Positions 1-13,373 of a stretch of DNA of 27,360 nt are shown one piece after another (the first letter of the stretch is position 1; the number at the start of each line of letters is the position of its first letter). The stretch lies in IMG/VR virus record IMGVR_UViG_2695420569_000030. One strand, written 5' to 3'. The stretch is from a virus. Its lineage: Duplodnaviria; Heunggongvirae; Uroviricota; Caudoviricetes. The notes beneath the pieces are model-generated. The model did no database searches and had not been told where the DNA came from. It worked only from the letters and a program-made list of their open reading frames with translations. Position numbers and translations under genes: made by a program.

Positions 1-1053
1 TTACGGGGTAATGCCAACCGCTGCCGCCACTTTGTCGCCACTTGGCAGCGTTGCCAGAGGATTGAAACGGAGCGCCGTTTCCAGATGATCCGGTGCCAGA
101 TGTGCGTAACGCATAGTCATTTTTATATCGTGGTGTCCGAGAATTTTTTGTAAGGCCAGAATGTTTCCACCCGACATCATGAAGTGCGCCGCAAACGTAT
201 GGCGCAGAACGTGTGTGAGTTGACCGCGAGGGAGTACGATAGACGTTTTTTCCATCACGGATAAAAATTGAAAATAGCAGTCTGTGAAGAAATTGAACCC
301 ATCAAGCGCCATGATCTCTTCGTAAAGCTCTTTACTGATAGGGATGCTTCTGTTTTTCTTCCCCTTCGTTCTGACAAAGGTAATTCGGTATTTGGTCACC
401 TGTGAGCGGGTAAGATTTACGGCTTCACGCCAGCGTGCGCCTGTGCTTAAGCATATCTTAACTACCAGTGCCAGAATTGGGTCCTGACGTTTGCAATCAG
501 CCAGCAATTCAACAATCTGCTCATGGGTAAGCCATGCCATCTCTTTTTCTGCGATGGTGAATTTTCGCATGTTCTCCAGTGGGTTCGGATACGACCATTC
601 GCCCAGACGGGATAGTTCGCTAAAAACACTACTTAGATAGCTTTGCTCCAGGTTAATGGTGACCGGGCTTGCTCCTTTCTTCCATTTCTCGCTGAAGTAG
701 ATCTCGCCTGTCAGGCGTTTATCTCGATAGTGGGCAAACATTTTAGAGGTGAGATCGGTTGCAAGAGGATTGCCCAGAGCGTCAACCATCAACAGCAATT
801 TGTCATAGACATGCTGCCCAGCTGTCAGAGATTTACCATGTAGTTTGAACCATAGCTCAACCACGTCTTTCAGTGTTCGACGATCCACTGATTCACCCAG
901 CCAGGGCTTTGCTTCGGTTTCTTCCATCGTGTGGCGCTCAAAAGCCAGTGCTTCGCCTTTGGTGACGAATTGTTTACGCACACGACGCCCACTTCGTCCG
1001 GCGGGGTAACATTCGCAAAGCCATTTCCCAGTGGTGAGTTTTCGTACTGCCAT
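1..1053 (-). CDS. int: Phage integrase (tyrosine recombinase, P2/186 family)
   Basis: Minus-strand ORF ending with TAA at 1-3. Start moved in-frame to ATG at 1053 (MAVRKLTTGKW...), matching the N-terminal region of P2-type integrases as I recall them. C-terminal catalytic region contains ...HVLRHTFAAHFMMSGGNILALQKILGHHDIKMTMRYAHL (R, H-x-x-R and Y of tyrosine recombinases). Confidence 0.9.
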   Translation of the reverse strand: MAVRKLTTGKWLCECYPAGRSGRRVRKQFVTKGEALAFERHTMEETEAKPWLGESVDRRTLKDVVELWFKLHGKSLTAGQHVYDKLLLMVDALGNPLATDLTSKMFAHYRDKRLTGEIYFSEKWKKGASPVTINLEQSYLSSVFSELSRLGEWSYPNPLENMRKFTIAEKEMAWLTHEQIVELLADCKRQDPILALVVKICLSTGARWREAVNLTRSQVTKYRITFVRTKGKKNRSIPISKELYEEIMALDGFNFFTDCYFQFLSVMEKTSIVLPRGQLTHVLRHTFAAHFMMSGGNILALQKILGHHDIKMTMRYAHLAPDHLETALRFNPLATLPSGDKVAAAVGITP

Positions 1054-1241
1054 AAAAAATGCCCTCCAGTAGAGAGCATTTTCACTGTATGTATAACCAG
1101 TGTCAATGTATGAAATCCTACGACCATACATCTCACTGAAGCCATAATTAAGTTGGCTATTCTTTTTGCTATGTGAGCATGTAACTTTTGCGGTTAACCT
1201 GCGGCTCATTTTTATTTTAGACGCAGATATAAAAGCAAAAG

Positions 1242-1433
1242 TTATCGTGAGTTTTTAGTACAGATTTTTTTGGATTTACTAATAGTTCCATCATTGCAAA
1301 CGAATTTGCCATCTGAGGTACAGTGAGAAACACCTCCCTTTTTCCCTGAGCAGGGATAATTTCTAGCATAGGTAGTTAGTGGGTTTAATAACAAAGAACA
1401 TGACAAAACCACAAAAAATACCTTACCAAGCAT
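1242..1433 (-). CDS. Hypothetical small protein with predicted signal peptide, Cys-rich mature part
   Basis: 63-aa ORF between repressor and integrase on the same strand. Strong RBS (GGGAGGAAA) about 5 nt before the ATG. Hydrophobic N-terminus [23 protein letters not shown], then a lysine- and cysteine-containing tail. No homolog recognised. Confidence 0.4.
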
Positions 1434-1448
1434 AGTTTCCTCCCGGTA

Positions 1449-2018
1449 CTATTTAACATACTTGACTGTTAAACTTATAATTTTACCAATTATTTCAATG
1501 TCTTCTATCTTGCATTCGAAGGCTCTGTTTCCACCCTCGACGAAGATTCTTCCACCGGGTAAACGAGTAATGTCACGGATAGTTATTTCGCCATCAATAC
1601 TTATTACCCATTTACCATCACGTATATCATCAAATTCTTTATCACAAATAAATTCAGAATTGTTATCTGTGATGACAAAAGGTTTTTTAAACGTAGAGGG
1701 TAGAAATCCCTTATCAAAAATATAAAAACCGTCTTTCTGCAATGCTCCATCAGACAATAAATATTTTTCTACTTCTATAGTATTTGTATTTGCTGATGCT
1801 TGCTTTGAACCATGCCCTGTTGTTAGCCAATTAAGCGAGGTGCCCGTTTCAAGGGCGCACTGGATTACCCAATCTGCTGGAAAAATATCACGCATATAGC
1901 GCGTTGCCATGGTGCTCTTAGAAACACCTAAATGATCACATAGAGCCTGACGGGTACCGAACCCATATGCTTCAACTAAACGTTCTATGGCTTTCTTACC
2001 GCCGCTATTGAAATCCAC
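1449..2018 (-). CDS. cI: CI-type immunity repressor (phage 186 CI-like)
   Basis: Recalled 186 CI features are present: EAYGF, CALETG...L.WL.TG, W.ISIDGEI.IR.IT.LPG and GG..FEC.I.DI. The track ORF runs to a GTG at 2105; I prefer the in-frame GTG at 2018, which follows a GGAGG RBS and gives about 189 aa (186 CI is about 192 aa). The start is uncertain and 1449..2105 is the alternative. Confidence 0.7.
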   Translation of the reverse strand: MDFNSGGKKAIERLVEAYGFGTRQALCDHLGVSKSTMATRYMRDIFPADWVIQCALETGTSLNWLTTGHGSKQASANTNTIEVEKYLLSDGALQKDGFYIFDKGFLPSTFKKPFVITDNNSEFICDKEFDDIRDGKWVISIDGEITIRDITRLPGGRIFVEGGNRAFECKIEDIEIIGKIISLTVKYVK

Positions 2019-2163
2019 AAGTCCTCCAAAGAAATCCAAAATTCGTTGACAGATTCCAAAAGCGATCTTAAAGTTGAACCAGAAGTGTTCTTTTGGAGCC
2101 TTCACTACTAATCACGACAAACAACGGCTCGCCACAAGCCATATCTAGAAGGAATGTTGCCTT

Positions 2164-2367
2164 ATGACACCTAACATTTCAATTACTCTGAATACACCAC
2201 ATGTCACAATCGAACGTTATAGCGAACTGACTGGCCTTTCTATTGATACGATTAACGACATGTTGGCTGATGGCCGACTACCTCGTCATCGTCTTCGTAA
2301 AGACAAAAAACGTGAAAAGGTAATGATTAACATGGCTGCTCTGACTGTTGATGCTTTGTCTGCTTAA
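2164..2367 (+). CDS. Apl/Cox-like small DNA-binding excision and switch regulator
   Basis: 67-aa basic ORF transcribed divergently from the repressor, at the position of apl (186) or cox (P2). HTH-like segment [22 protein letters not shown]. Confidence 0.5.
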
Positions 2368-2431
2368 TAGACGTCTATTTTCGCAATAAGACGCTGAGTT
2401 CGATTTTGCGATAAGTTCGGAGTTGAAAACC

Positions 2432-2941
2432 ATGTTTGATTACCAAGTTTCCAAACATCCACATTTTGATGAAGCCTGTCGTGCATTCACACTGCGCCAC
2501 AATCTGGTGCAACTGGCAGAACGTGCGGGCATGAATGTGCAGATTCTGCGGAACAAGCTGAACCCAGCTCAACCTCATTTATTAACCGCACCAGAAATCT
2601 GGCTGCTTACCGATCTGACTGAAGATTCAACGTTGGTAGATGGTTTTCTGGCACAGATTCATTGTCTGCCATGTGTACCGATTAATGAGGTAGCAAAAGA
2701 GAAACTGCCGCATTACGTCATGAGCGCAACTGCAGAGATCGGGCGTGTTGCAGCAGGTGCGGTATCTGGTGATGTAAAAACTAGTGCCGGTCGTCGTGAT
2801 GCTATCAGCAGCATTAACTCTGTAACACGACTGATGGCGCTGGCTGCTGTTTCATTGCAGGCCCGTTTACAGGCTAATCCTGCGATGGCGAGTGCAGTTG
2901 ATACCGTGACTGGCCTCGGTGCTTCATTCGGTTTGCTGTGA
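2432..2941 (+). CDS. cII: CII-like lysogeny-establishment regulator (186 CII family)
   Basis: 169 aa from the ATG at 2432, in-frame inside the track ORF that begins at a TTG at 2423. GGAG lies upstream. Position directly after apl and the length match 186 cII. Confidence 0.6.
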
Positions 2942-2948
2942 GGTGCTT

Positions 2949-3245
2949 ATGCTGACGAAAGAACCATCATTTGCATCGCTGCTGGTAAAACAAAGCCCGG
3001 CAATGCACTACGGTCACGGCTGGATCACGGGTGAGGATGGAAAACGCTGGCATCCATGTCATTCACAAGATGAATTGCTGTCTGAATTGACCACGAGGAA
3101 ACGGAGAAAGTCCAAATGTATGCGGCAGAAAGTGAAGTGGTTTATCAGTTTCGTTACAGAGGGGAGAGTTATTCAGTACCTGAAGATGATTTGCTCTGTT
3201 GCTATCCGTCATTGTCGGGCGATGGCAGTTACTTTTTCACGTTAA
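2949..3245 (+). CDS. Hypothetical early protein (uncertain; overlaps the next ORF)
   Basis: ATG at 2949 preceded by GAGGTG. The N-terminal about 57 aa looks protein-like; the distal part overlapping 3116-3245 has odd composition. Possibly mis-framed. Confidence 0.3.
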   Translation: MLTKEPSFASLLVKQSPAMHYGHGWITGEDGKRWHPCHSQDELLSELTTRKRRKSKCMRQKVKWFISFVTEGRVIQYLKMICSVAIRHCRAMAVTFSR

Positions 3246-3340
3246 AGGATGGGACGTTTTTACGGGGAGAGCAGGTTAAAGAGACGATACGAAAAAATGT
3301 ATCTCCTCTTGAGCGTTACCGTAAGAACAAAGAACGATAG
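3116..3340 (+). CDS. Hypothetical early protein
   Basis: 74-aa ORF with RBS GGAGAAAG about 7 nt before the ATG and a balanced composition. Confidence 0.4.
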   Translation: MYAAESEVVYQFRYRGESYSVPEDDLLCCYPSLSGDGSYFFTLKDGTFLRGEQVKETIRKNVSPLERYRKNKER

Positions 3341-3362
3341 CTGCGTTTGGGGGATATGAAGT

Positions 3363-3704
3363 ATGGCAATTAATGGCGCTGCAGCAACTGTTCCATTAAG
3401 CCCCGGTGAACGCCTGAATGGACTTAATCACATTGCAGAGTTAAGGGCGAAAGTTTTTGGCCTGAATATTGAGTCAGAGCTTGAGCGGTTTATTAAAGAT
3501 ATGCGTGATCCACGGGATAGCAATAATGAACAAAATAAACGGGCACTGGCTGCCATATTCTTTATGGCAAAAATTCCAGCTGAACGTCATAGCATCAGCA
3601 TTAATGAGCTGACCACTGACGAAAAGCGGGAGCTGATTAAAGCAATGAATCATTTTCGTGCAGTGGTGAGCTTATTTCCCAGACGGCTAACCATGCCGAA
3701 TTAA
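3363..3704 (+). CDS. Hypothetical early protein
   Basis: 113-aa ORF with GGGGGA upstream, in a compact co-directional early operon. Confidence 0.5.
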   Translation: MAINGAAATVPLSPGERLNGLNHIAELRAKVFGLNIESELERFIKDMRDPRDSNNEQNKRALAAIFFMAKIPAERHSISINELTTDEKRELIKAMNHFRAVVSLFPRRLTMPN

Positions 3705-3771
3705 CCAACTAATGAAATTAATGGCGTAAACCCGCCGGGCATCCCTTTATCTAAATTCAGGAGAATTGATT

Positions 3772-4005
3772 ATGCGTAATATTGAAACCCTCACGACTAA
3801 AACCGGACCGGATGACGCAGGGCTTAATATTTTACTGACAGAGGCTCGTCTGGAAGAACGCCGGGCAAGGGCTGAAGCAATGGCTGCTCGCCTTGATAGC
3901 CTGGCGTGTCATATCACATCCCGCCAGCTAACCCACGTGGAAGCGGCAGAACTGCTGCGCGTGACTGCTGAAGCAATCCAGAACGAAGCGCAGGAGATCC
4001 ACTAA
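3772..4005 (+). CDS. Hypothetical early protein
   Basis: ATG at 3772 preceded by AGGAG. Its stop overlaps the start of the next gene. Confidence 0.5.
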   Translation: MRNIETLTTKTGPDDAGLNILLTEARLEERRARAEAMAARLDSLACHITSRQLTHVEAAELLRVTAEAIQNEAQEIH

Positions 4006-4232
4006 TGGCTGATGCAATGGATCTCGTACAGCAGCGCGTTGAAGAAGAACGCCAGCGCCATATCCGTGCAGCCCGTGCCAAATCACCGGGCGTGTCACGC
4101 GTACTTTGCATTGAATGTGAAGCGCCAATTCCGCCAGCACGACGCCGCGCCATTCCGGGAGTGCAGCTTTGCATTACCTGTCAGGAAATCGCAGAACTGA
4201 AAGGCAAACATTACAACGGAGGTGCTGTATGA
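4005..4232 (+). CDS. TraR/DksA-family C4 zinc-finger protein
   Basis: 75 aa with a CxxC...CxxC arrangement (CIECEAPIP...LCITCQ) typical of phage and plasmid TraR/DksA-type zinc fingers. Confidence 0.7.
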   Translation: MADAMDLVQQRVEEERQRHIRAARAKSPGVSRVLCIECEAPIPPARRRAIPGVQLCITCQEIAELKGKHYNGGAV

Positions 4233-5086
4233 GCACCATCCTGAAATGGGCGGGAAATAAAACCGCCATTATGCCAGAACTGAAAAAATACCTTCCTGCT
4301 GGCCCGCGACTGGTTGAACCTTTCGCGGGTTCCTGTGCTGTGATGATGGAAACGGATTATCCCAGCTATCTGGTTGCGGATATTAATCCTGATTTAATCA
4401 ACCTCTATAAAAAGGTTTCCGCTGATTGTGAATCGTTTATATCTCGCGCCAGAGTTTTATTTGAGATCGCAAACAGGGAGGTGGCTTATTACAACATAAG
4501 GCAGGAGTTTAACTGCTCAACTGAAATTACTGATTTCATGAAAGCGGTATATTTCCTGTATCTTAATCGTCACGGTTACCGTGGTTTATGTCGCTATAAC
4601 AAGAGCGGGCATTTCAACATCCCCTACGGTAATTATAAAAATCCGTATTTCCCTGAAAAAGAACTTCGCACATTTGCAGAAAAAGCCCAGCGAGCAACGT
4701 TTATCTGCGCCAGCTTTGATGAAACGCTGGCGATGTTGAAGGCGGGAGATGTGGTGTATTGCGATCCGCCGTATGACGGTACGTTTTCCGGCTATCACAC
4801 TGATGGTTTCACTGAAGATGACCAGTATCACCTGGCATCCGTTCTTGAACATCGGTCATCAGAAGGACATCCAGTCATTGTTTCTAACAGTGACACATCC
4901 CTGATCCGTTCGCTGTATCGCAATTTTACTCACCACTATATCAAGGTAAAACGCAGCATCGGTGTGGCAGCTGGCGAGGGTAAATCAGCAACAGAAATCA
5001 TTGCTGTTTCCGGGCCGCGCTGCTGGATGGGATTTGATTATTCGCGTGGCGTGGATAGTTCTGCCGTGTACGGAGTACGTGCATGA
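4229..5086 (+). CDS. dam: DNA adenine methyltransferase (Dam-like N6-adenine MTase)
   Basis: In-frame ATG at 4229 after GGAGG. SAM-binding motif (FAGSCAV) and catalytic DPPY motif (VYCDPPYDG). ATGA overlaps with both neighbours. Confidence 0.85.
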
Positions 5087-7497
5087 GTCATGCCGATATG
5101 AACAACTGCTGCGGCTTTAACGAGGCTGCTGCAGCATTCTCATGGAACAGCCCGAAAAAGGCCATTAACCCTTATCTGGACCCGGCGGAAGTTGCGCCGG
5201 TTTCTACGCTTTCAAACCTGATCACTCTGTACGCTGCCGATAACGAGCAGGAACAGTTGCGCCGCGAGGCACTGAGTGATCAGGTCTGGGAGCGTTATTT
5301 CTTTAATGAATCACGTGATCCTGTCCAGCGCGAAATGGAGCAGGATAAGCTCATTAGCCGGGCAAAGCTGGCGCATGAGCAGCAGCGTTTTAATTCAGAC
5401 ATGGTCATTCTGGCGGACGTCAACGCCCAGCCTTCCCATATCAGCAAGCCGCTGATGCAACGTATTGAATACTTCAGCAGCCTGGGCAAGCCAAAGGCTT
5501 ATTCCCGCTATTTACGTGAGACGATTAAGCCATGTCTGGAACGACTGGAGCATGTACGCGACAGTCAGCTATCTGCATCTTTTCGCTTTATGGCAAGCCA
5601 TGAAGGGCTGGACGGCCTGCTGATCCTGCCTGAAATGAGTCAGGATCAGGTGAAACGCCTGTCCACCCTGGTAGCTGCGCATATGAGTATGTGCCTTGAT
5701 GCAGCTTGTGGTGATTTGTATGCCACCGATGACGTTAAGCCAGAAGAAATCCGCAAGACATGGGAAAAGGTGGCAGCGGAAACCCTGCGTCTGGATGTCA
5801 TCCCACCTGCGTTTGAGCAACTCCGTCGGAAAAGAAACCGCCGTAAACCCGTGCCCTATGAACTCATTCCGGGTTCGTTGGCGCGTATGTTGTGTGCCGA
5901 CTGGTGGTATCGGAAATTATGGAAGATGCGTTGTGAATGGCGGGAAGAGCAGTTGCGTGCTGTCTGCCTGGTCAGCAAAAAAGCATCCCCCTATGTCAGC
6001 TATGAAGCCGTGATGCATAAACGTGAGCAGCGCCGTAAGTCGCTGGAGTTTTTCCGTTCTCATGAACTGGTGAACGAAGACGGCGACACGCTGGATATGG
6101 AAGATGTGGTAAACGCCAGCAGCAGCAACCCGGCGCATCGCCGCAATGAGATGATGGCCTGTGTTAAAGGTCTGGAGCTTATCGCGGAAATGCGCAGTGA
6201 CTGCGCCGTTTTCTACACTATCACCTGTCCGTCGCGTTTCCATTCCACGCTCAATAACGGCAGACCCAACCCGACCTGGACAAACTCGACGGTAAGACAA
6301 AGCAGCGACTATCTGGTCGGCATGTTTGCTGCATTTCGTAAGGCGATGCACAAAGCCGGATTGCGCTGGTATGGCGTGCGGGTGGCTGAGCCGCATCATG
6401 ACGGTACAGTTCACTGGCACCTGTTGTGTTTTATGCGCAAAAAAGACCGCCGCGCCATCACTGCATTACTGCGTAAGTTTGCCATCCGTGAAGACCGCGA
6501 GGAGCTGGGCAATAACACTGGGCCGCGCTTTAAGTCTGAGTTGATTAACCCGCGCAAAGGAACGCCGACAAGCTACATCGCGAAATATATCAGTAAGAAC
6601 ATTGACGGGCGTGGTCTGGCTGGCGAGATCAGCAAGGAAACGGGTAAATCTCTGCGTGATAACGCTGAATACGTTAATGTCTGGGCGTCTCTGCATCGTG
6701 TTCAGCAATTCCGCTTCTTTGGCATTCCGGGGCGTCAGGCTTACCGTGAACTGCGATTGCTGGCTGGTCAGGCGGCAAGGCAACAGGGTGACAAAAAAGC
6801 AGGTGCTCCGGTACTGGATAACCCGCGCCTTGATGCCATTCTGGCTGCTGCTGATGCTGGCTGTTTTGCCACCTACATTATGAAGCAGGGCGGCGTGTTG
6901 GTTCCCCGCAAATATCACTTGATCAGAACCGCTTATGAAATCAACGAAGAGCCGACAGCCTATGGCGATCACGGCATTCGTATTTATGGCATCTGGTCAC
7001 CCATTGCAGAGGGCAAGATCTGCACTCATGCAGTGAAGTGGAAAATGGTTCGTAAGGCCGTTGACGTTCAGGAGGCGGCAGCCGACCAGGGCGCTTGCGC
7101 CCCTTGGACTCGTGGCAATAACTGTCCCCTTGCTGAAAATTTGTACCAACAAGGGAAAGACAAATCAGCTGATGGAGATACCAGAACTGATATCACCCGT
7201 ATGGATGACAAGGAGTTGCACGATTACCTGCACAGTATGAGCAAAAAAGAGCGCCGGGAACTGGCAGCAAGGTTACGCCTGGTGAAACCGAAACGGCGTA
7301 AAGACTACAAACAGCGAATTACAGATCATCAGCGACAGCAGCTCGTGTATGAACTGAAGTCCAGGGGATTTGATGGCAGCGAGAAAGAGGTCGATTTACT
7401 CCTTCGCGGCGGCAGTATTCCGTCAGGAGCAGGCCTGCGTATCTTCTATCGGAACCAGCGTTTGCAGGAAGATGATAAGTGGCGGAACCTGTATTAA
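5083..7497 (+). CDS. A: Replication initiation endonuclease (P2 gpA-type rolling-circle initiator)
   Basis: 804 aa, the size class of P2 A. HUH-type metal-binding motif (HWHLLCF) and downstream tyrosines. Located after the early regulators, as in P2/186. Confidence 0.9.
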
Positions 7498-7589
7498 TTA
7501 CGCGGGTTAACAATTCGTGCTCTTAATAATACCAGGCATTTCTGGCTGATGAACGTAAAAAAACGTTTTACATCAGTAAGATTATTATA

Positions 7590-7609
7590 TACTGTAAATA
7601 TAAACAGTG
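7590..7609 (+). promoter_or_regulatory. LexA operator (SOS box) upstream of the tum-like operon
   Basis: TACTGTAAATATAAACAGTG is a CTG-N10-CAG motif with an AT-rich spacer, close to the LexA consensus, about 40 bp upstream of the ATG at 7650. A second degenerate box (GTG-N10-CAG) abuts it. Confidence 0.6.
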
Positions 7610-7649
7610 GTTATGTATACAGTATCGCTTTGGTGTCATAGGAGGAAAG

Positions 7650-7838
7650 ATGCAGGACTATTTTTTGGAGTCTTTGAAGCTCCAGCGCATTGATTTTTTT
7701 CTTAAGCTTGTAGCGGCTAGTGAGTGTAGTGATGAAGAGAAGGGGCTGGCTCTGCAGTGGGTTTCTGAATTGACTGATGAACTCATGGCAAAAATCAGAA
7801 CCCACGAATACAACCGCTCAATGGATGTCATCAGTTGA
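7650..7838 (+). CDS. Small protein, possible N-terminal part of a Tum-like antirepressor
   Basis: 62-aa ORF with strong RBS (GGAGGAAAG), directly downstream of the LexA box and upstream of the DinI-like ORF. Confidence 0.5.
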   Translation: MQDYFLESLKLQRIDFFLKLVAASECSDEEKGLALQWVSELTDELMAKIRTHEYNRSMDVIS

Positions 7839-7848
7839 GGTGACTTTT

Positions 7849-8082
7849 ATGCGCATTGAAATAATGATCGATAAAGAGCAGAAGATTAGCCAGTCTACCC
7901 TGGACGCCCTTGAATCCGAGCTTTACCGCAATCTGCGCCCCCTGTATCCCAAAACGGTAATTCGTATCCGCAAAGGTAGCTCTAACGGTGTGGAACTGAC
8001 CGGACTGCAACTGGATGAAGAAAGAAAACAAGTGATGAAAATTATGCAGAAAGTGTGGGAAGACGACAGCTGGCTGCATTAA
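7849..8082 (+). CDS. DinI-family protein
   Basis: 77 aa (MRIEIMIDK...DALESEL...VWEDDSWL) that aligns by eye along its whole length with E. coli DinI (MRIEVTIAK...DALAGEL...TWESADDW). RBS GAGGTG. Confidence 0.8.
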   Translation: MRIEIMIDKEQKISQSTLDALESELYRNLRPLYPKTVIRIRKGSSNGVELTGLQLDEERKQVMKIMQKVWEDDSWLH

Positions 8083-8193
8083 GAAACGTTGCCTCCAGGA
8101 GGATTCATTCTGATGGGGGCTAGTTTGGGCAACGAGTGAAACGAGGCGTAAGGTGGGCGGGCATTTTGATAAGTGATCGTCCGCTTTGTGCTA

Positions 8194-8213
8194 GAAGCGG
8201 TCGTTACCGCTTC
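8194..8213. terminator. Stem-loop between convergent genes (possible terminator)
   Basis: GAAGCGG-tcgtta-CCGCTTC, a perfect 7-bp stem. An upstream CCGCTT copy could form an alternative pairing. The U-tract is weak. Confidence 0.25.
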
Positions 8214-8226
8214 AGCACTTTGTTAA

Positions 8227-10086
8227 TTAGTGAGGGCTGGTTATTACGTAGTCGCTCTGGTCATCCTCTCCCAGCCTCTCAGGTATTAAATCGTTGAAGG
8301 AAATAGTATTACTCTTAGGTTTTTCTTCAATTGGAAGTTCAGCTACCCTTAATTTGAGCGGCATGGGGCAGACGATACCACTAAAAATACAGGTTCCTGT
8401 AGATAGCGTTGGAATCGACTCTTCAGTCAGTCGATCTATATATGATACTGATTTTTCAATTGCGTACAGATCATTCTGATTAATAAGGCGATGAATAAAA
8501 TAATTGTGTGCTTGGGATATGATTGTCGACGATATATCATTAGGGCGTTGACTGGAAATTGTGATAAAAACTCCAAATTTTCTCCCCTCCTTTATGATTT
8601 CCTCAAAAGTTTCCAGACGATAATCTCTCCAACTTTCCGTTTCCCGAAAAGAAGTATTAGACAAAATATTGTGGGCTTCATCTATAATGATGTGCAGTGT
8701 AGATTTCTCTGTAGACATTTTCTTCATATTGTAAGCCCACTTGGCTATCAAAAGAGGAAGCGTTTTTTTCATGGTTATATTAACCATATTTAGATTCACA
8801 ACCGTGAAATTATGTTCACCCCAAAAGTCAGACTGTCCGGAAGTATCAAATATTTTGGCTATATCTTTACGGTTAGCACTCATTCTATTTATAACTGGTG
8901 AAATATGTTCAGGGTTAGACTTGTTAGATAAATATTCCTGTATTAACTGTAAGTACATAAAGTCCAACAGTTCTTCAATCATATCAGTTTTAAATAAAAA
9001 ATTGCTTGCAAGACTGAATAGATAGGAGCGCTCAGTATCAGCTTCTGTATTGAAAATACTACCACCCCTCAATTTCCATTTATATGCAGTTGAATGATAC
9101 TCAAGATCAGATATAAGTTCTGGGTCATCTTTGAAAATTGGGCTAAGAAACTGATTTATAGTATCGCATTTGGGTTTGTCGCTACTAAAGAGATTTTGTC
9201 TGACTTTTTTCTTCAGGATATTGCGCATAAACTCAAGAGGATTATCAGCAGTCATCACTTTCTTGCGAAACTCAAGAACTCTCTTCAGGAAAGGTTTCTG
9301 TGTTTTGTCTGTTGCATCGGTTAGAACTGAGAGCATATCATGCTCAAGTAGAACCTCTCTGGGTAGAGGAAGTTTGTCACCATTTGCATGGTGCGTGTTG
9401 AGATTATAAACCGTCTTCTCGTCAGTAATACAGCGTGGGGCAGTATATTCTCCATTAAAGTCGAATAGAATAAATTTGCATCTTTCACTAAAGTGGTTGC
9501 CGAGAATATGTTTAACTTGGGCAATACCTGCTTTGTATAGCGCGGCTAGGGTATTTGACTTTCCGCTGCCTGTATTACCGAAAATGGCAATGTGGGAATT
9601 AATAAGACCATTGATTGGTAGTGCAATTTCAATATCTTCAAGATCTGTACGAGTAAACCTCATTACAGTTTCGTCTGCATTAGCTATCTGATGAACCGTT
9701 TGTATCATCTCTTCAGTTACCACGAAGACTTCATTGCCGATGAGAGGTAGTTCACGCGAACCACCAATGAAGCAACCAGTACGATCAATGTAACCCGTAA
9801 GAGTAGAGGTCAGGTATCGCCGATATCGCCAGGCATCACTGCCGCTCCCAGCGAGATGTTTTTCCTCAATGATTCGTTCCGCTTCAACCTTGCCGATCAG
9901 GCTCATGAAACCTTTTTTGATCTCAATGAAGCTACCCACTGATACATTTCTTAGAACTTTTCCCTGATAAAACAAGTCACTGAGATTTTTGTTTTTATCG
10001 ACCAAAATTGTCACAGCGCGTCCAGAAACCTCACAGACTTCGCCTATACGGAGCACCGCTTCCTCTTCAGTAAAATGCCTGCTCAT
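8227..10086 (-). CDS. HerA-like P-loop ATPase (partner of SIR2)
   Basis: Walker A GNTGSGKSNT and Walker B HIIIDEAH. Start taken at the ATG that forms an ATGA overlap with the SIR2 stop; the track ORF extends 7 codons further. Confidence 0.8.
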   Translation of the reverse strand: MSRHFTEEEAVLRIGEVCEVSGRAVTILVDKNKNLSDLFYQGKVLRNVSVGSFIEIKKGFMSLIGKVEAERIIEEKHLAGSGSDAWRYRRYLTSTLTGYIDRTGCFIGGSRELPLIGNEVFVVTEEMIQTVHQIANADETVMRFTRTDLEDIEIALPINGLINSHIAIFGNTGSGKSNTLAALYKAGIAQVKHILGNHFSERCKFILFDFNGEYTAPRCITDEKTVYNLNTHHANGDKLPLPREVLLEHDMLSVLTDATDKTQKPFLKRVLEFRKKVMTADNPLEFMRNILKKKVRQNLFSSDKPKCDTINQFLSPIFKDDPELISDLEYHSTAYKWKLRGGSIFNTEADTERSYLFSLASNFLFKTDMIEELLDFMYLQLIQEYLSNKSNPEHISPVINRMSANRKDIAKIFDTSGQSDFWGEHNFTVVNLNMVNITMKKTLPLLIAKWAYNMKKMSTEKSTLHIIIDEAHNILSNTSFRETESWRDYRLETFEEIIKEGRKFGVFITISSQRPNDISSTIISQAHNYFIHRLINQNDLYAIEKSVSYIDRLTEESIPTLSTGTCIFSGIVCPMPLKLRVAELPIEEKPKSNTISFNDLIPERLGEDDQSDYVITSPH

Positions 10087-11126
10087 CTCGAGCCTCCCAG
10101 ATAGCACGTGATAATGTTATTCATTACCGGAAAATCAACATTTCTTCCCGGCCGATAAATAATCTCTACGTTTGAGTAATCCCGAAATTTCTCCATAAAG
10201 CCGTTAACACTGGCCTCATCGAAAGCAAAGATCAGTAGCTTCAGGGTGGCGTTGCGCAGGGCTTTTTTAGTTATCGTTTCAATGTGCTCATCAGCAAACG
10301 AGAACCCAAAGACAATTAGTAAAGTTGCTTCTTTATCAAGCTCGTTGGAATAGGTTCTCAGTAAATCATAATAAACGTTCTGTAGTAGAGTCTCTTTAAA
10401 CTTCTCCTTACGTGGAAGAATAAGTGCATGAGCAAGTACCCATCCTTTCATTTCGGCTAGGGTGGGAAAGTCAAGCGGCTTAATATCTGCAATACGATAA
10501 ATGATTTTCCCTTTAGAATGCTGCCAAGAGAGCGAACCATGAAGTTTTATAAGGTTAACAGTAGGAAGCTCAACTTTATAATTATACAGATTTCCGGTTG
10601 CACTTACAGAATGATTAAAGCTACCCGCATCAAATTCCGCATCTCCCAAAATACTTGCTCTTCTATTGAATCCATCATTAAAAAGAATATTGTTATTACG
10701 TGTGGCAGCTTCTTCGATGAATAAATCATAATTAGTTGTAAAAACGTTAATACGCCTCGGAAGTAGGCCAGTTCGGCGGCGGGTCAGTATCTTTTCCAGT
10801 GAAGACATAAATGCATCATAATTTGCACGGGTACATTCCAAATCGGTGATCACCTGAGGTGCGAAGGGGGTGCCGTAGCCGCGCTTCAACATGCATTCAT
10901 GAGGTAGCCAAACATCTGACAAAAAGTCAGCTGCCATCCTTAAGTATTCATCTTCCTGTTCATCATTAATAAGCTGCTGAAGATCCGTTTCGATTGTCCC
11001 CAGTACTTTAATCGCTGGGAGGGATGCACCTGATCCGATGAGAAAGTTAATGTTAGCTGACTGAAATATCCGCTCTAAGTAGTCTCGGTCACTATCGTTA
11101 CCGTAGTATGCGCGCTTGACTGCCAT
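10083..11126 (-). CDS. SIR2-like domain protein (defence-type, predicted NADase)
   Basis: Motifs GSGAS, VFTTNYDLFIEEA and IKLHGS, characteristic of defence-associated SIR2 domains. ATG at 11126 with AGGA RBS; the track start at 11141 is a TTG. Confidence 0.75.
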   Translation of the reverse strand: MAVKRAYYGNDSDRDYLERIFQSANINFLIGSGASLPAIKVLGTIETDLQQLINDEQEDEYLRMAADFLSDVWLPHECMLKRGYGTPFAPQVITDLECTRANYDAFMSSLEKILTRRRTGLLPRRINVFTTNYDLFIEEAATRNNNILFNDGFNRRASILGDAEFDAGSFNHSVSATGNLYNYKVELPTVNLIKLHGSLSWQHSKGKIIYRIADIKPLDFPTLAEMKGWVLAHALILPRKEKFKETLLQNVYYDLLRTYSNELDKEATLLIVFGFSFADEHIETITKKALRNATLKLLIFAFDEASVNGFMEKFRDYSNVEIIYRPGRNVDFPVMNNIITCYLGGSR

Positions 11127-11550
11127 CTTATCCTTCCACAAAACATTGGATTAGTCTGTAATTTATTTAATCTTAACGCCGAGCTCAATACTTTAACATC
11201 ACTTCTTCTGGCGATTGCTATGAGCCCTTCTTGATAAAAAGTTCGATCGGGAAACTGATCCTTTATGCCACAAGTTTTCTAGCTATCCTCAAAAAATTGG
11301 TGTTAAAACTGTGCCAACAAAGTTGCAAGGTTCGCTTCTCGCTCACAGCGAACTTTCATCTTTGTAAACCCGTATGATTCGCTTTTCAGCAGTCATTCAG
11401 ATACGGATTTACGCTTCCCTTGGCAGCGCATGACTATGACGCATGAGATCGCATGATCGTTTGAGGATCGTTTTTGCTGAAGTCAGCCAGAACTGGCGTG
11501 CTTTTGCTTATGTCATGCAGGTGCATGAAAACCACTACATAAAGCGGGCA

Positions 11551-11569
11551 GGCGTGGCGGGGATACGAG
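11551..11569. other. Candidate cos (cohesive-end) site
   Basis: GGCGTGGCGGGGA followed by GCGCGCGCT resembles the 19-nt cohesive ends of P2/186 as I recall them (GGCG[A/T]GGCGGGGAAAGCA...). It lies in the intergenic region between the two cargo operons. Recalled from memory, not verified. Confidence 0.3.
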
Positions 11570-11721
11570 CGCGCGCTAAGTCATATAAGAGTTATATATT
11601 GATTTGATTGCTGGACATGCATACAGTATCGCTCTATCATCTAATAAATCTTAGAGTATTTGACAATGTTTGGATAAAATGGAACCTAACTTATTCATAA
11701 TCCGCTAAACAGGGATGTCAG

Positions 11722-12636
11722 ATGCCATACCAATTGGTAGAGCTTAGCCCCGTAGCTAACGATCTTGAACAGTTAGGAACCAAAGAGAAGTTTTGGTTCT
11801 ATTTCTCCGATGACACTGTAAATTTGCAGTTGTTTAAGTACTCTAGGCCAGGTACTGGCGAGCATTGGTCTGAAAAGTGTGCTGCTGAGTTATGTCATTT
11901 GCTTAACATTCCACATGCTAGCTATGATTTGGCGCGATACAATGGTCGATTCGGTGTGGTGACTCAGAATATCATTCCATCTGGTTTCCGGATGGTAATG
12001 GGAAATGAAGTGCTTCACAGTTCGACATTCGATTATCCTGGGTCTTTACAAGCCGGGGAAAAGCCGGTAAGGGTCAGAGAACACACTGTCACAAGGGTAT
12101 TGGGTTGTTTAGATAGGGAATCTATCAAGCCTCCTCCGAGTGTATATGATCTAACCGGGCTAAATGCAGCAGATGTATTTTGTGGATATTTGATGCTCGA
12201 TGCACTTGTGAGTAATCAAGATCGCCATCATGAAAATTGGGCGATCATGCTTAACAATGAAACTGGTGAGCAGTTTTTGTGTCCAACATACGATCATGCC
12301 GCTAGTTTAGGAAGGGAGATGTTAGATGATGAGCGTAACGAACGGCTTAATACTAAAGATAAAAATCGACAAATCCCATGTTTTGTAAGAAAAGCTCGCT
12401 CTGAGCTATTCAAAGCAAAAACTGATAAAAAGCCCTTGCTGACCGTTGAAGCATTTCAACATGCAGTTGAAGGGAGAGTTGCCGCTCGCGACCATTGGTT
12501 AGGTAAGTTGAGCGTTTTAACAGAAGATTCCATTACAGATGTGTTTAACCAAGTGCCTTCATCGTGTATATCCGACAGTGCACGTAGATTTGCAACGTTA
12601 ATGGTAATGGAAAATCGCAGAAGGTTACTAGAATGA
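11722..12636 (+). CDS. HipA-family serine/threonine kinase (short, HipT-like core)
   Basis: Catalytic-loop motif SNQDRHHENW (HipA D-x-H-x-x-N), downstream CPTYDHA (HipA activation-region PFYD) and a Gly-rich-loop-like GTKEKF. 304 aa, shorter than canonical HipA. Confidence 0.75.
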   Translation: MPYQLVELSPVANDLEQLGTKEKFWFYFSDDTVNLQLFKYSRPGTGEHWSEKCAAELCHLLNIPHASYDLARYNGRFGVVTQNIIPSGFRMVMGNEVLHSSTFDYPGSLQAGEKPVRVREHTVTRVLGCLDRESIKPPPSVYDLTGLNAADVFCGYLMLDALVSNQDRHHENWAIMLNNETGEQFLCPTYDHAASLGREMLDDERNERLNTKDKNRQIPCFVRKARSELFKAKTDKKPLLTVEAFQHAVEGRVAARDHWLGKLSVLTEDSITDVFNQVPSSCISDSARRFATLMVMENRRRLLE

Positions 12637-13373
12637 CTAATACAAACTCCGTTTACGTCGCATGGCAGGCACCAGATACCAGAGACTGGCATGTTGTTGG
12701 TAACTTGCAAGAGCGCAAATCGGGGTATGTTTTCAGGTATACCAAAGGTGCTCTCAAATCTACTAAATTTACAAAGTTTAGCGGCATGAGTGATGTTCGT
12801 GAAACTTATGTTTCGGAAGAATTGTTTCCTCTTTTTAAAAATCGCCTTTTATCACCGAGACGTCCAGAGTATCCGAGTTTCATTAAATGGCTTGGATTTG
12901 AAGAAGATAAGGTAAATCCTATCGATATTCTTGCTCGCTCGGGAGGCTTACGAAGCACTGATCAGCTGCAGATTTTCAAAAAAATTGATGTTGATTCTGA
13001 TGGTAACTTTGAGCATTTTTTCTTCTTACATGGACTTGGTTACTTAAATAGCTTAGCTAATGCTCGTGTATCTGAATTGAAACCGGGGCAAATTTTGCGT
13101 CTTTGCTTGGATCTTCAAAATGAATACGATGGGGATGCTGTTGTCGTTCGTGCAGATAAACCAGCTGAAATCGTTGGTTACTGCCCTAGGTATTTAAGTA
13201 ATGATATCAAGAAGATGTTATTGGATGATCCAAAATCAATCACTTTAACGGTCGAAAAGATTAGCGATGATGCTCCTCATAACTATCGGTTATTATGTAA
13301 ATTATCAGGAGTACTAAGCCAAGCCTGTCAATCGACGCTGATTCCTCAGGATGAGTTTGAACCTATTGAGTAA
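12633..13373 (+). CDS. HipA-N-terminal-like (HipS-like) domain fused to a HIRAN-like domain
   Basis: Start overlaps the kinase stop (ATGA). The N-terminal region (W...VGNL...F.Y, then LFPLFKNRLLSPRRP...IDILARSGGLRS) parallels the HipA N-subdomain 1. The C-terminal region (LHGLGY...LRLCLDLQNEYDGDAVVVRA...IVGYCPRYLS) matches the HIRAN signature. Confidence 0.6.
   Translation: MTNTNSVYVAWQAPDTRDWHVVGNLQERKSGYVFRYTKGALKSTKFTKFSGMSDVRETYVSEELFPLFKNRLLSPRRPEYPSFIKWLGFEEDKVNPIDILARSGGLRSTDQLQIFKKIDVDSDGNFEHFFFLHGLGYLNSLANARVSELKPGQILRLCLDLQNEYDGDAVVVRADKPAEIVGYCPRYLSNDIKKMLLDDPKSITLTVEKISDDAPHNYRLLCKLSGVLSQACQSTLIPQDEFEPIE

Follow-up and report, generated by a model that had tools for sequence, protein, structure and literature searches.

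A tumA/tumB-like gene pair behind a LexA box as the probable SOS operon of a P2/186-like prophage

[quoted passage not shown] Its gene lies directly after gpA, a position shared by tumA and tumB of PSP3 and by STM2728 and STM2726.1 of Fels-2. The passage on these phages in Lemire 2011 states, citing Bunny 2002, that tum is split by a stop codon in both Fels-2 and PSP3; it adds, on the strength of a personal communication by G. E. Christie, that the upstream gene of PSP3 is an antirepressor and the downstream one a DinI homologue (PMC3121763). Antirepressor activity of an upstream gene is reported for PSP3 only, and this communication was relayed through two papers. A literature search on PSP3 TumA/TumB found nothing. 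The two-gene SOS switch with LexA control is already known from the GenBank annotation of PSP3 tumA/tumB, from Fels-2 and from the literature. The lethality of lexA-null mutations in Salmonella was reportedly put down to induction of Fels-2 by Bunny et al. in 2002.

The DNA analysed here, a 27,360-nt stretch that we call the window, is a P2/186-like (Peduoviridae) prophage. It starts at the integrase stop codon and continues through the genes for CI, CII, Fil, a Dam methylase and gpA, a cargo region, and the portal, terminase, head and tail genes. Its backbone, from 1 to 11576, has 98% identity with a prophage of E. coli E189. The SOS locus adjoins the 3' side of gpA, as expected for the split tum operon of Fels-2/PSP3-type Peduoviridae. 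The original prediction described a LexA box about 40 bp before a 62-aa ORF, called ORF1 here, followed after a 10-nt gap by a DinI-family ORF in another frame, and each of these features is present (Table 1). Taking the evidence below together, we consider the locus very probably an SOS operon of the common two-gene kind, belonging to a Fels-2/186-like (Peduoviridae) prophage.

Table 1. Coordinates of the SOS locus and of associated features in the window.
Feature	Position	Strand	Details
186-type CI immunity repressor, presumed target of ORF1	1449-2018	-	Pfam Phage_CI_repr 2.5e-31 and Phage_CI_C 3.4e-29
gpA replicase	5083-7497		Pfam Phage_GPA 1e-125
Putative -35 of p95-like SOS promoter	7567-7572	+	TTTACA; placed by homology, 17 nt before TACTGT at 7590-7595
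LexA box	7590-7609	+	TACTGTAAATATAAACAGTG; core CTG-N10-CAG at 7592-7607; first six bases are the putative -10, TACTGT
Second, imperfect LexA-like element	7605-7624	+	Core GTG-N10-CAG at 7607-7622; abuts the first box
ORF1, tumA-like putative antirepressor, 62 aa	7650-7838	+	SD AGGAGG at 7640-7645; stop codon at 7836-7838
DinI-family gene, tumB-like, 77 aa	7849-8082	+	SD GAGGTGA at 7837-7843; +1 frame relative to ORF1
GC-rich hairpin	8194-8213	+	GAAGCGGU-CGUU-ACCGCUUC; within the 148-nt structured spacer; without a clean U-run

The LexA box stands out in the window. It is the sole match, at three mismatches or fewer, to the 20-nt consensus in the 27.4 kb, and none of 100 shuffles contained one; the bare CTGT-N8-ACAG core is less exceptional, with at least one match in 31 of 100 shuffles. 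The box ends 40 nt before the ATG of ORF1, and a CTG-N10-CAG box occupies the equivalent site in all 14 homologous loci that we compared. A generic sigma-70 scan of 7400-8400 called no promoter; the one proposed here was located through homology to the 186 p95 promoter and phylogenetic footprinting over the 14 loci. Twelve of them, 186 included, carry TTTACA or TTCACA 17-18 nt upstream of the TACTGT of the box, with flanks that differ between loci. The exceptions are PSP3, which has a weaker TTCCCA, and an Edwardsiella locus without a clear match. In 186 the p95 annotation reads TTCACA-18-TACTGT with the LexA site beginning at the -10, and the same architecture is predicted in the window. At the level of sequence, then, the LexA box overlaps the -10 of the operon, and we infer that TTTACA-17-TACTGT is used as a p95-like promoter and that LexA binds the box. 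The second, LexA-like element shows five mismatches to the consensus when read from the sequence, the C of CTG among them. All Fels-2-type loci keep this element, including its ...TATACAG half, and it lines up with the only LexA box present in 186 and in PSP3. It may be a relic or a second site at which LexA binds weakly.

Two alternatives had been offered for the tum-like locus: a tum gene interrupted by a frameshift or sequencing error, and a natural two-protein version under LexA control. The latter is already documented for Fels-2 and PSP3 (GenBank tumA/tumB; Lemire 2011), and it is the one that stands; the former is refuted because homologues are consistently two genes. The locus occurs in 1125 of 5426 complete E. 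coli genomes, BL21 included, and every PGAP-annotated record among those listed has two genes. It was also found in 67 phage records, and all phage homologues examined have two genes. Fels-2, Cartapus, SEN8, SopEPhi, MLG42 and Klebsiella phages share the stop after 62 codons and the two-gene layout.

If the window nevertheless held a 186-type tum that a real frameshift or a sequencing error had disrupted, the two ORFs would be fragments of one protein of 144-146 aa. Such a reading could point to the span of 433 nt from 7650 to 8082, correctly predicted and not far from the 441 nt that tum has in 186. It could also point to the DinI frame, which lies at +1 relative to ORF1 and stays open over the 75 nt before its ATG, overlapping ORF1. 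We give it next to no credence, given how widely the two-gene layout is shared and how freely its details vary. In diverged homologues, whose ORF1 is 84-89% identical, ORF1 always has 62 codons, but the gap measures 10, 11, 12 or 13 nt, and in PSP3 it measures 3 nt. The offset of the DinI frame relative to ORF1 can be 0, 1 or 2, and each gap holds a purine-rich SD of its own. In other homologues the stretch over which the DinI frame runs open into ORF1 is down to 42, 12 or 3 nt. Purifying selection acts on the whole of ORF1, the overlap with the DinI frame included (dN/dS 0.07-0.09 against diverged homologues, dS about 0.7-2), and most members of its family are stand-alone proteins, as described below. 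Variable gap and frame, a conserved two-gene layout and purifying selection together exclude a pseudogene, a sequencing error and a conserved programmed frameshift, or make them very unlikely. What we find are two cistrons with separate SDs, of 62 aa and 77 aa, as in a split tum with a product of about 60 aa and a 77-aa DinI homologue. We find neither a conserved frame relation or slippery site nor single-ORF homologues as the norm.

It is also highly improbable that a programmed +1 frameshift joins the two ORFs in some translation events, making a Tum-like fusion of about 145 aa beside the separate products, with the A-run at 7790-7794 (GCA AAA ATC) as the candidate site. The +1 frame is open from 7774, so a +1 slip of tRNA-Lys on A AAA A would give about 48 + 97 aa, near the 146 aa of 186 Tum, and 186 itself makes both full-length and DinI-only products. 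However, the offset is 2 in SEN8, SopEPhi and ST437phi4.1 and 0 in MLG42 and PSP3, and in all five the open +1 stretch stops short of the A-run. The run itself is merely 4-6 nt long and has no known +1 stimulatory context, and the DinI gene has a strong SD of its own.

The second gene of the two-gene operon is readily recognized. Its product matches the Pfam DinI family PF06183 along the whole profile (positions 1-63 of 63; E = 6.6e-23; 81.3 bits, cut-off 24.2) and the E. coli DinI structure 1GHH (E = 2.7e-6), and it is under strong purifying selection (dN/dS 0.05-0.09, dS about 0.7-2). It falls below the NCBIfam equivalog NF007893 for chromosomal E. coli DinI, with 42.7 bits against a cut-off of 111, and by this measure it is a phage paralogue rather than the host dinI. 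Its frame does overlap ORF1, as originally predicted: it is open back to 7774, has an in-frame ATG at 7777 and covers the last 65 nt of ORF1. The start does not lie at 7777; the true start is 7849, and the SD-preceded ATG equivalent to it is the start in all annotated homologues examined except phage 500465-1.

A hairpin at 7827-7844 (GUCAUC-AGUUGA-GGUGAC followed by UUUUAU) spans the junction of the two genes; its loop contains the stop codon of ORF1, and its 3' arm contains the SD of DinI. It could couple translation of DinI to that of ORF1. We rejected this hairpin, which was flagged as terminator-like, as an attenuator or a means of SD sequestration: one was found against 0.8 in shuffles, and the sequence of the junction is not conserved in SEN8, SopEPhi or MLG42.

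ORF1 is harder to place by conventional means. No family in Pfam, NCBIfam or PADLOC covers it, a PDB sequence search with it gave no match, and its match in PHROG, family 698, is labelled 'unknown function'. An AlphaFold2 model predicts a two-helix hairpin with helices at residues 2-23 and 28-61 (pLDDT 90). A Foldseek search of this model against PDB and BFVD returned generic helical hairpins only, none at E <= 0.001. Some Klebsiella phage records and one UniRef entry label ORF1 a 'levan regulatory domain protein' or 'Levan regulatory protein'; we found no support for this name here, and it appears to be wrong. Elsewhere its homologues are labelled 'hypothetical protein', the E. coli records listed included. 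The ORF1 copy of Escherichia phage 500465-1 (701-889) reads ...EERGWLCSGVSE... where others read ...EEKGLALQWVSE..., and this short out-of-frame stretch between in-frame flanks suggests paired indel errors in the record.

The comparison with 186 Tum is straightforward for the DinI module and more demanding for ORF1. The DinI-likeness of the C-terminal part of Tum was part of the original prediction, and it is borne out by an alignment of the DinI ORF with Tum residues 71-145 (41% identity, E = 3e-24). The likeness of ORF1 to Tum, which the same prediction implied, is weak yet significant. BLASTP of ORF1 against 186 Tum gave no alignment. A Smith-Waterman comparison aligns residues 6-41 of one with 6-41 of the other without gaps, at a score of 57 against 21.3 +/- 4.0 for shuffles (z about 8.8); 1 of 2000 shuffles reached this score (p about 5e-4). 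Profile-profile alignment of the ORF1 and Tum-N families with hhalign is gapless as well, pairing 4-43 with 4-43 at P = 8e-4, with a probability of just 24.5%. When 12 ORF1-type and 12 Tum-N-type sequences were aligned with MAFFT (24 rows, the window ORF1 among them), no gaps were introduced; M1, E7, L20 and A34 are invariant and R13, C26, E40 and K48 nearly so. PSP3 TumA represents a third sequence type. Its relationship to Tum-N is clear, with a score of 55 that none of 2000 shuffles reached, and its similarity to ORF1 is marginal (p = 0.033). Because of these alignments, the link through PSP3 TumA, and the shared genomic position and promoter, the view that ORF1 and the N-terminal half of 186 Tum are remotely homologous is well supported at the level of sequence. 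The window thus encodes a module homologous to Tum residues 1-60, weakly but significantly similar; the two modules are not joined in one polypeptide of about 146 aa, with the ORF1 stop codon between them and DinI in the +1 frame. The locus would act as Tum does, in an unfused form.

We then asked how such modules are arranged across the family, using a combined profile against 1.84 billion representative proteins, in clusters at 50% identity. The search retrieved 158 clusters at E <= 0.001, and the best 150 have a median length of 66 aa. A DinI domain is present in the same chain in only 3-4 of these best 150 representatives, three of them clearly of the 186 lineage. Many 186-type Tum-N homologues stand alone at 63-78 aa and carry the source name 'Tum protein'. 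In the stretches examined from Salmonella and Edwardsiella prophage contigs and from ESSI-2-type phages, a Tum-N/ORF1-type gene with a LexA box follows gpA and no DinI gene is called nearby; by these gene calls, antirepressor-only is a third architecture. Because stand-alone proteins are the majority and some loci have no DinI gene, the antirepressor module appears to be autonomous and the DinI module optional, and 186 is better seen as a fusion than the window as a split. The term 'split' probably has the polarity wrong, with the stand-alone form common and the 186 fusion rare.

The repressor encoded in the window fits a need for an antirepressor. It is 33% identical to 186 CI (E = 3e-38), and its Pfam search revealed no peptidase family at E <= 0.001. 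Since no peptidase domain is detected in this CI, self-cleavage is not expected and an antirepressor would be needed for SOS induction. We envisage that in an undamaged cell LexA would sit on its box, cover the -10 of the p95-like promoter and keep the operon silent. Upon DNA damage, active RecA would bring about self-cleavage of LexA and the promoter would fire, and two independent cistrons would be translated, each from its own ribosome-binding site. The helical hairpin of ORF1 would bind the 186-type CI non-covalently, keeping it off its operators and derepressing the lytic promoter. The DinI-like protein, a counterpart of the C-terminal half of Tum and of the short products that 186 tum yields by internal initiation, would presumably modulate the RecA filament and so tune the SOS signal. 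The interaction between ORF1 and CI, the lytic derepression and the role of DinI are proposed from sequence comparison, and inactivation of the cognate CI by the upstream gene is predicted from its homology, the type of CI and the literature statement on PSP3.

A comparison of repressors bears on which part of CI might be recognized. In phages whose ORF1 is 98-100% identical to that of the window, CI is just 39-58% identical overall, which is unexpected for a specific binder unless its target is the conserved N-terminal domain. Over the N-terminal HTH domain (window residues 8-70), these phages share 70-83% identity with the window CI, compared to 49% for PSP3 and 40% for 186; over the linker and C-terminal domain the values are 24-41%, 27% and 27%, in a sample of 6 + 2 phages that is small and confounded by ancestry. 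The type of antirepressor appears to track the N-terminal and not the C-terminal domain of CI, which fits with ORF1 acting on the DNA-binding domain. A tentative extension, which we hold to be possible and somewhat doubtful, is that the near-invariant ORF1 type recognizes the conserved N-terminal DNA-binding domain of CI, so that one allele could inactivate the CIs of several Fels-2-like prophages that are otherwise heteroimmune. If this were true, cross-induction could occur between co-resident P2-like prophages, like the crosstalk among Gifsy prophages, and the CI surface hit by this class of antirepressor would be identified.

The same numbers can be turned the other way. ORF1 might be an SOS-induced small protein that is not a CI antirepressor, for example a partner or modulator of DinI or RecA or a protein with another role in damage, with the prophage induced by other means. 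The pairing of identical ORF1s with CIs 39-58% identical overall would suit this reading, as would the lack of an experimentally characterized close homologue and a generic helical hairpin fold without an informative structural neighbor. We nonetheless regard it as unlikely. The short Tum products, whose annotation describes them only as modulators, lack the half of Tum to which ORF1 is homologous in the same register. Genes of the ORF1/Tum-N type also occur without an adjacent DinI gene, which argues for a function independent of DinI. A CI without a self-cleavage domain would need an antirepressor, and the window holds no other LexA box. The identity of the CI N-terminal domain tracks the antirepressor type, and in PSP3 the upstream gene is, in the passage cited above, reported to be an antirepressor.

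Downstream of the operon, the similarity to Fels-2 and to most phage homologues breaks off where the DinI stop codon begins, at 8080, or no more than about 12 nt later (8080-8092). Because similarity ends at the DinI stop, we take the variable cargo region to have its recombination junction where the two-gene operon ends. The spacer between the convergent DinI and HerA genes (8083-8230, 148 nt) is strongly structured, with a fold of -59.1 kcal/mol (z = -5.05 against shuffles). Besides a long imperfect hairpin it contains the GC-rich hairpin listed in Table 1, which a terminator scan did not flag and which possibly marks the end of the operon. The spacer as a whole may be a bidirectional terminator or the scar of a mobile element.

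Between the SOS operon and the portal gene lies a cargo hotspot, at 8227-11141 (-) and 11722-13373 (+). It carries a SIR2-HerA defence pair (PADLOC HerA 6.7e-267, SIR2 6.3e-211) followed by the candidate system PDC-M03A/B (PADLOC 2e-122 and 3.4e-93), in which Pfam finds a HIRAN domain and, below threshold, a match resembling HipA_C. The SIR2-HerA pair is found in E. coli E189 as well, with an AIPR gene where the window has PDC-M03. The window lacks orf97, a gene that the SOS operons of 186 and Fels-2 contain.

Since the layout itself was known beforehand, the locus carries little weight as a discovery, and its practical value lies in the annotation of a very common 'hypothetical protein'. The 62-aa ORF1 is most likely the SOS antirepressor that makes widespread P2-like prophages inducible, that of E. 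coli BL21 included. Judging by the family census, the two proteins are normally separate, which would make the textbook 186 Tum a rare fusion. The modest lead that is left is the N-terminal domain of CI as the target of ORF1.

Among known systems, the dinI-gfoA/gftA operons of the Salmonella lambdoid prophages Gifsy-1, -2 and -3 resemble the window in being LexA-repressed and in encoding a separate DinI homologue and a small antirepressor (PMC3121763). They differ in that dinI comes first, the target is another type of repressor and the phages are lambdoid rather than P2-like; GfoA and GftA have been treated as a group separate from Tum (PMC3121763). Phage 186 shares with the window a LexA-controlled promoter with its -10 in the box, an N-module homologous to ORF1, a DinI-like C-module and a 186-type CI. 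However, its Tum is one polypeptide of 146 aa where the window has two cistrons, its N-module is only about 20% identical to ORF1, and its p95 operon consists of tum and orf97, the second of which the window lacks. The separate DinI gene of the window has a parallel in 186, a DinI-only product that is made from an internal GTG and that the annotation describes as a modulator of SOS induction.

PSP3 has the layout of the window, with a LexA box, a tumA of about 60 aa and a 77-aa DinI homologue, tumB, whose product is closely similar to the window DinI. Its tumA is annotated as 'similar to 5' end of 186 tum; UV induction of prophage'. In contrast to TumB, PSP3 TumA is of a different sequence type, with 22% identity to ORF1, and tumA and tumB share one frame, with a stop codon and 3 nt between them, whereas the genes of the window are offset by +1 and separated by 10 nt. 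The closest of these systems is Fels-2 of Salmonella Typhimurium LT2. Its CI is just 39% identical overall to that of the window, and downstream it has the orf97-sized STM2726 where the window has the convergent SIR2-HerA pair. In the operon itself the two agree in the position after gpA, the sequence of the LexA box, the 10-nt gap and the +1 offset, and STM2728 and STM2726.1 are identical to ORF1 and DinI at 61 of 62 and 77 of 77 residues, so that the window copy is essentially the Fels-2 allele.
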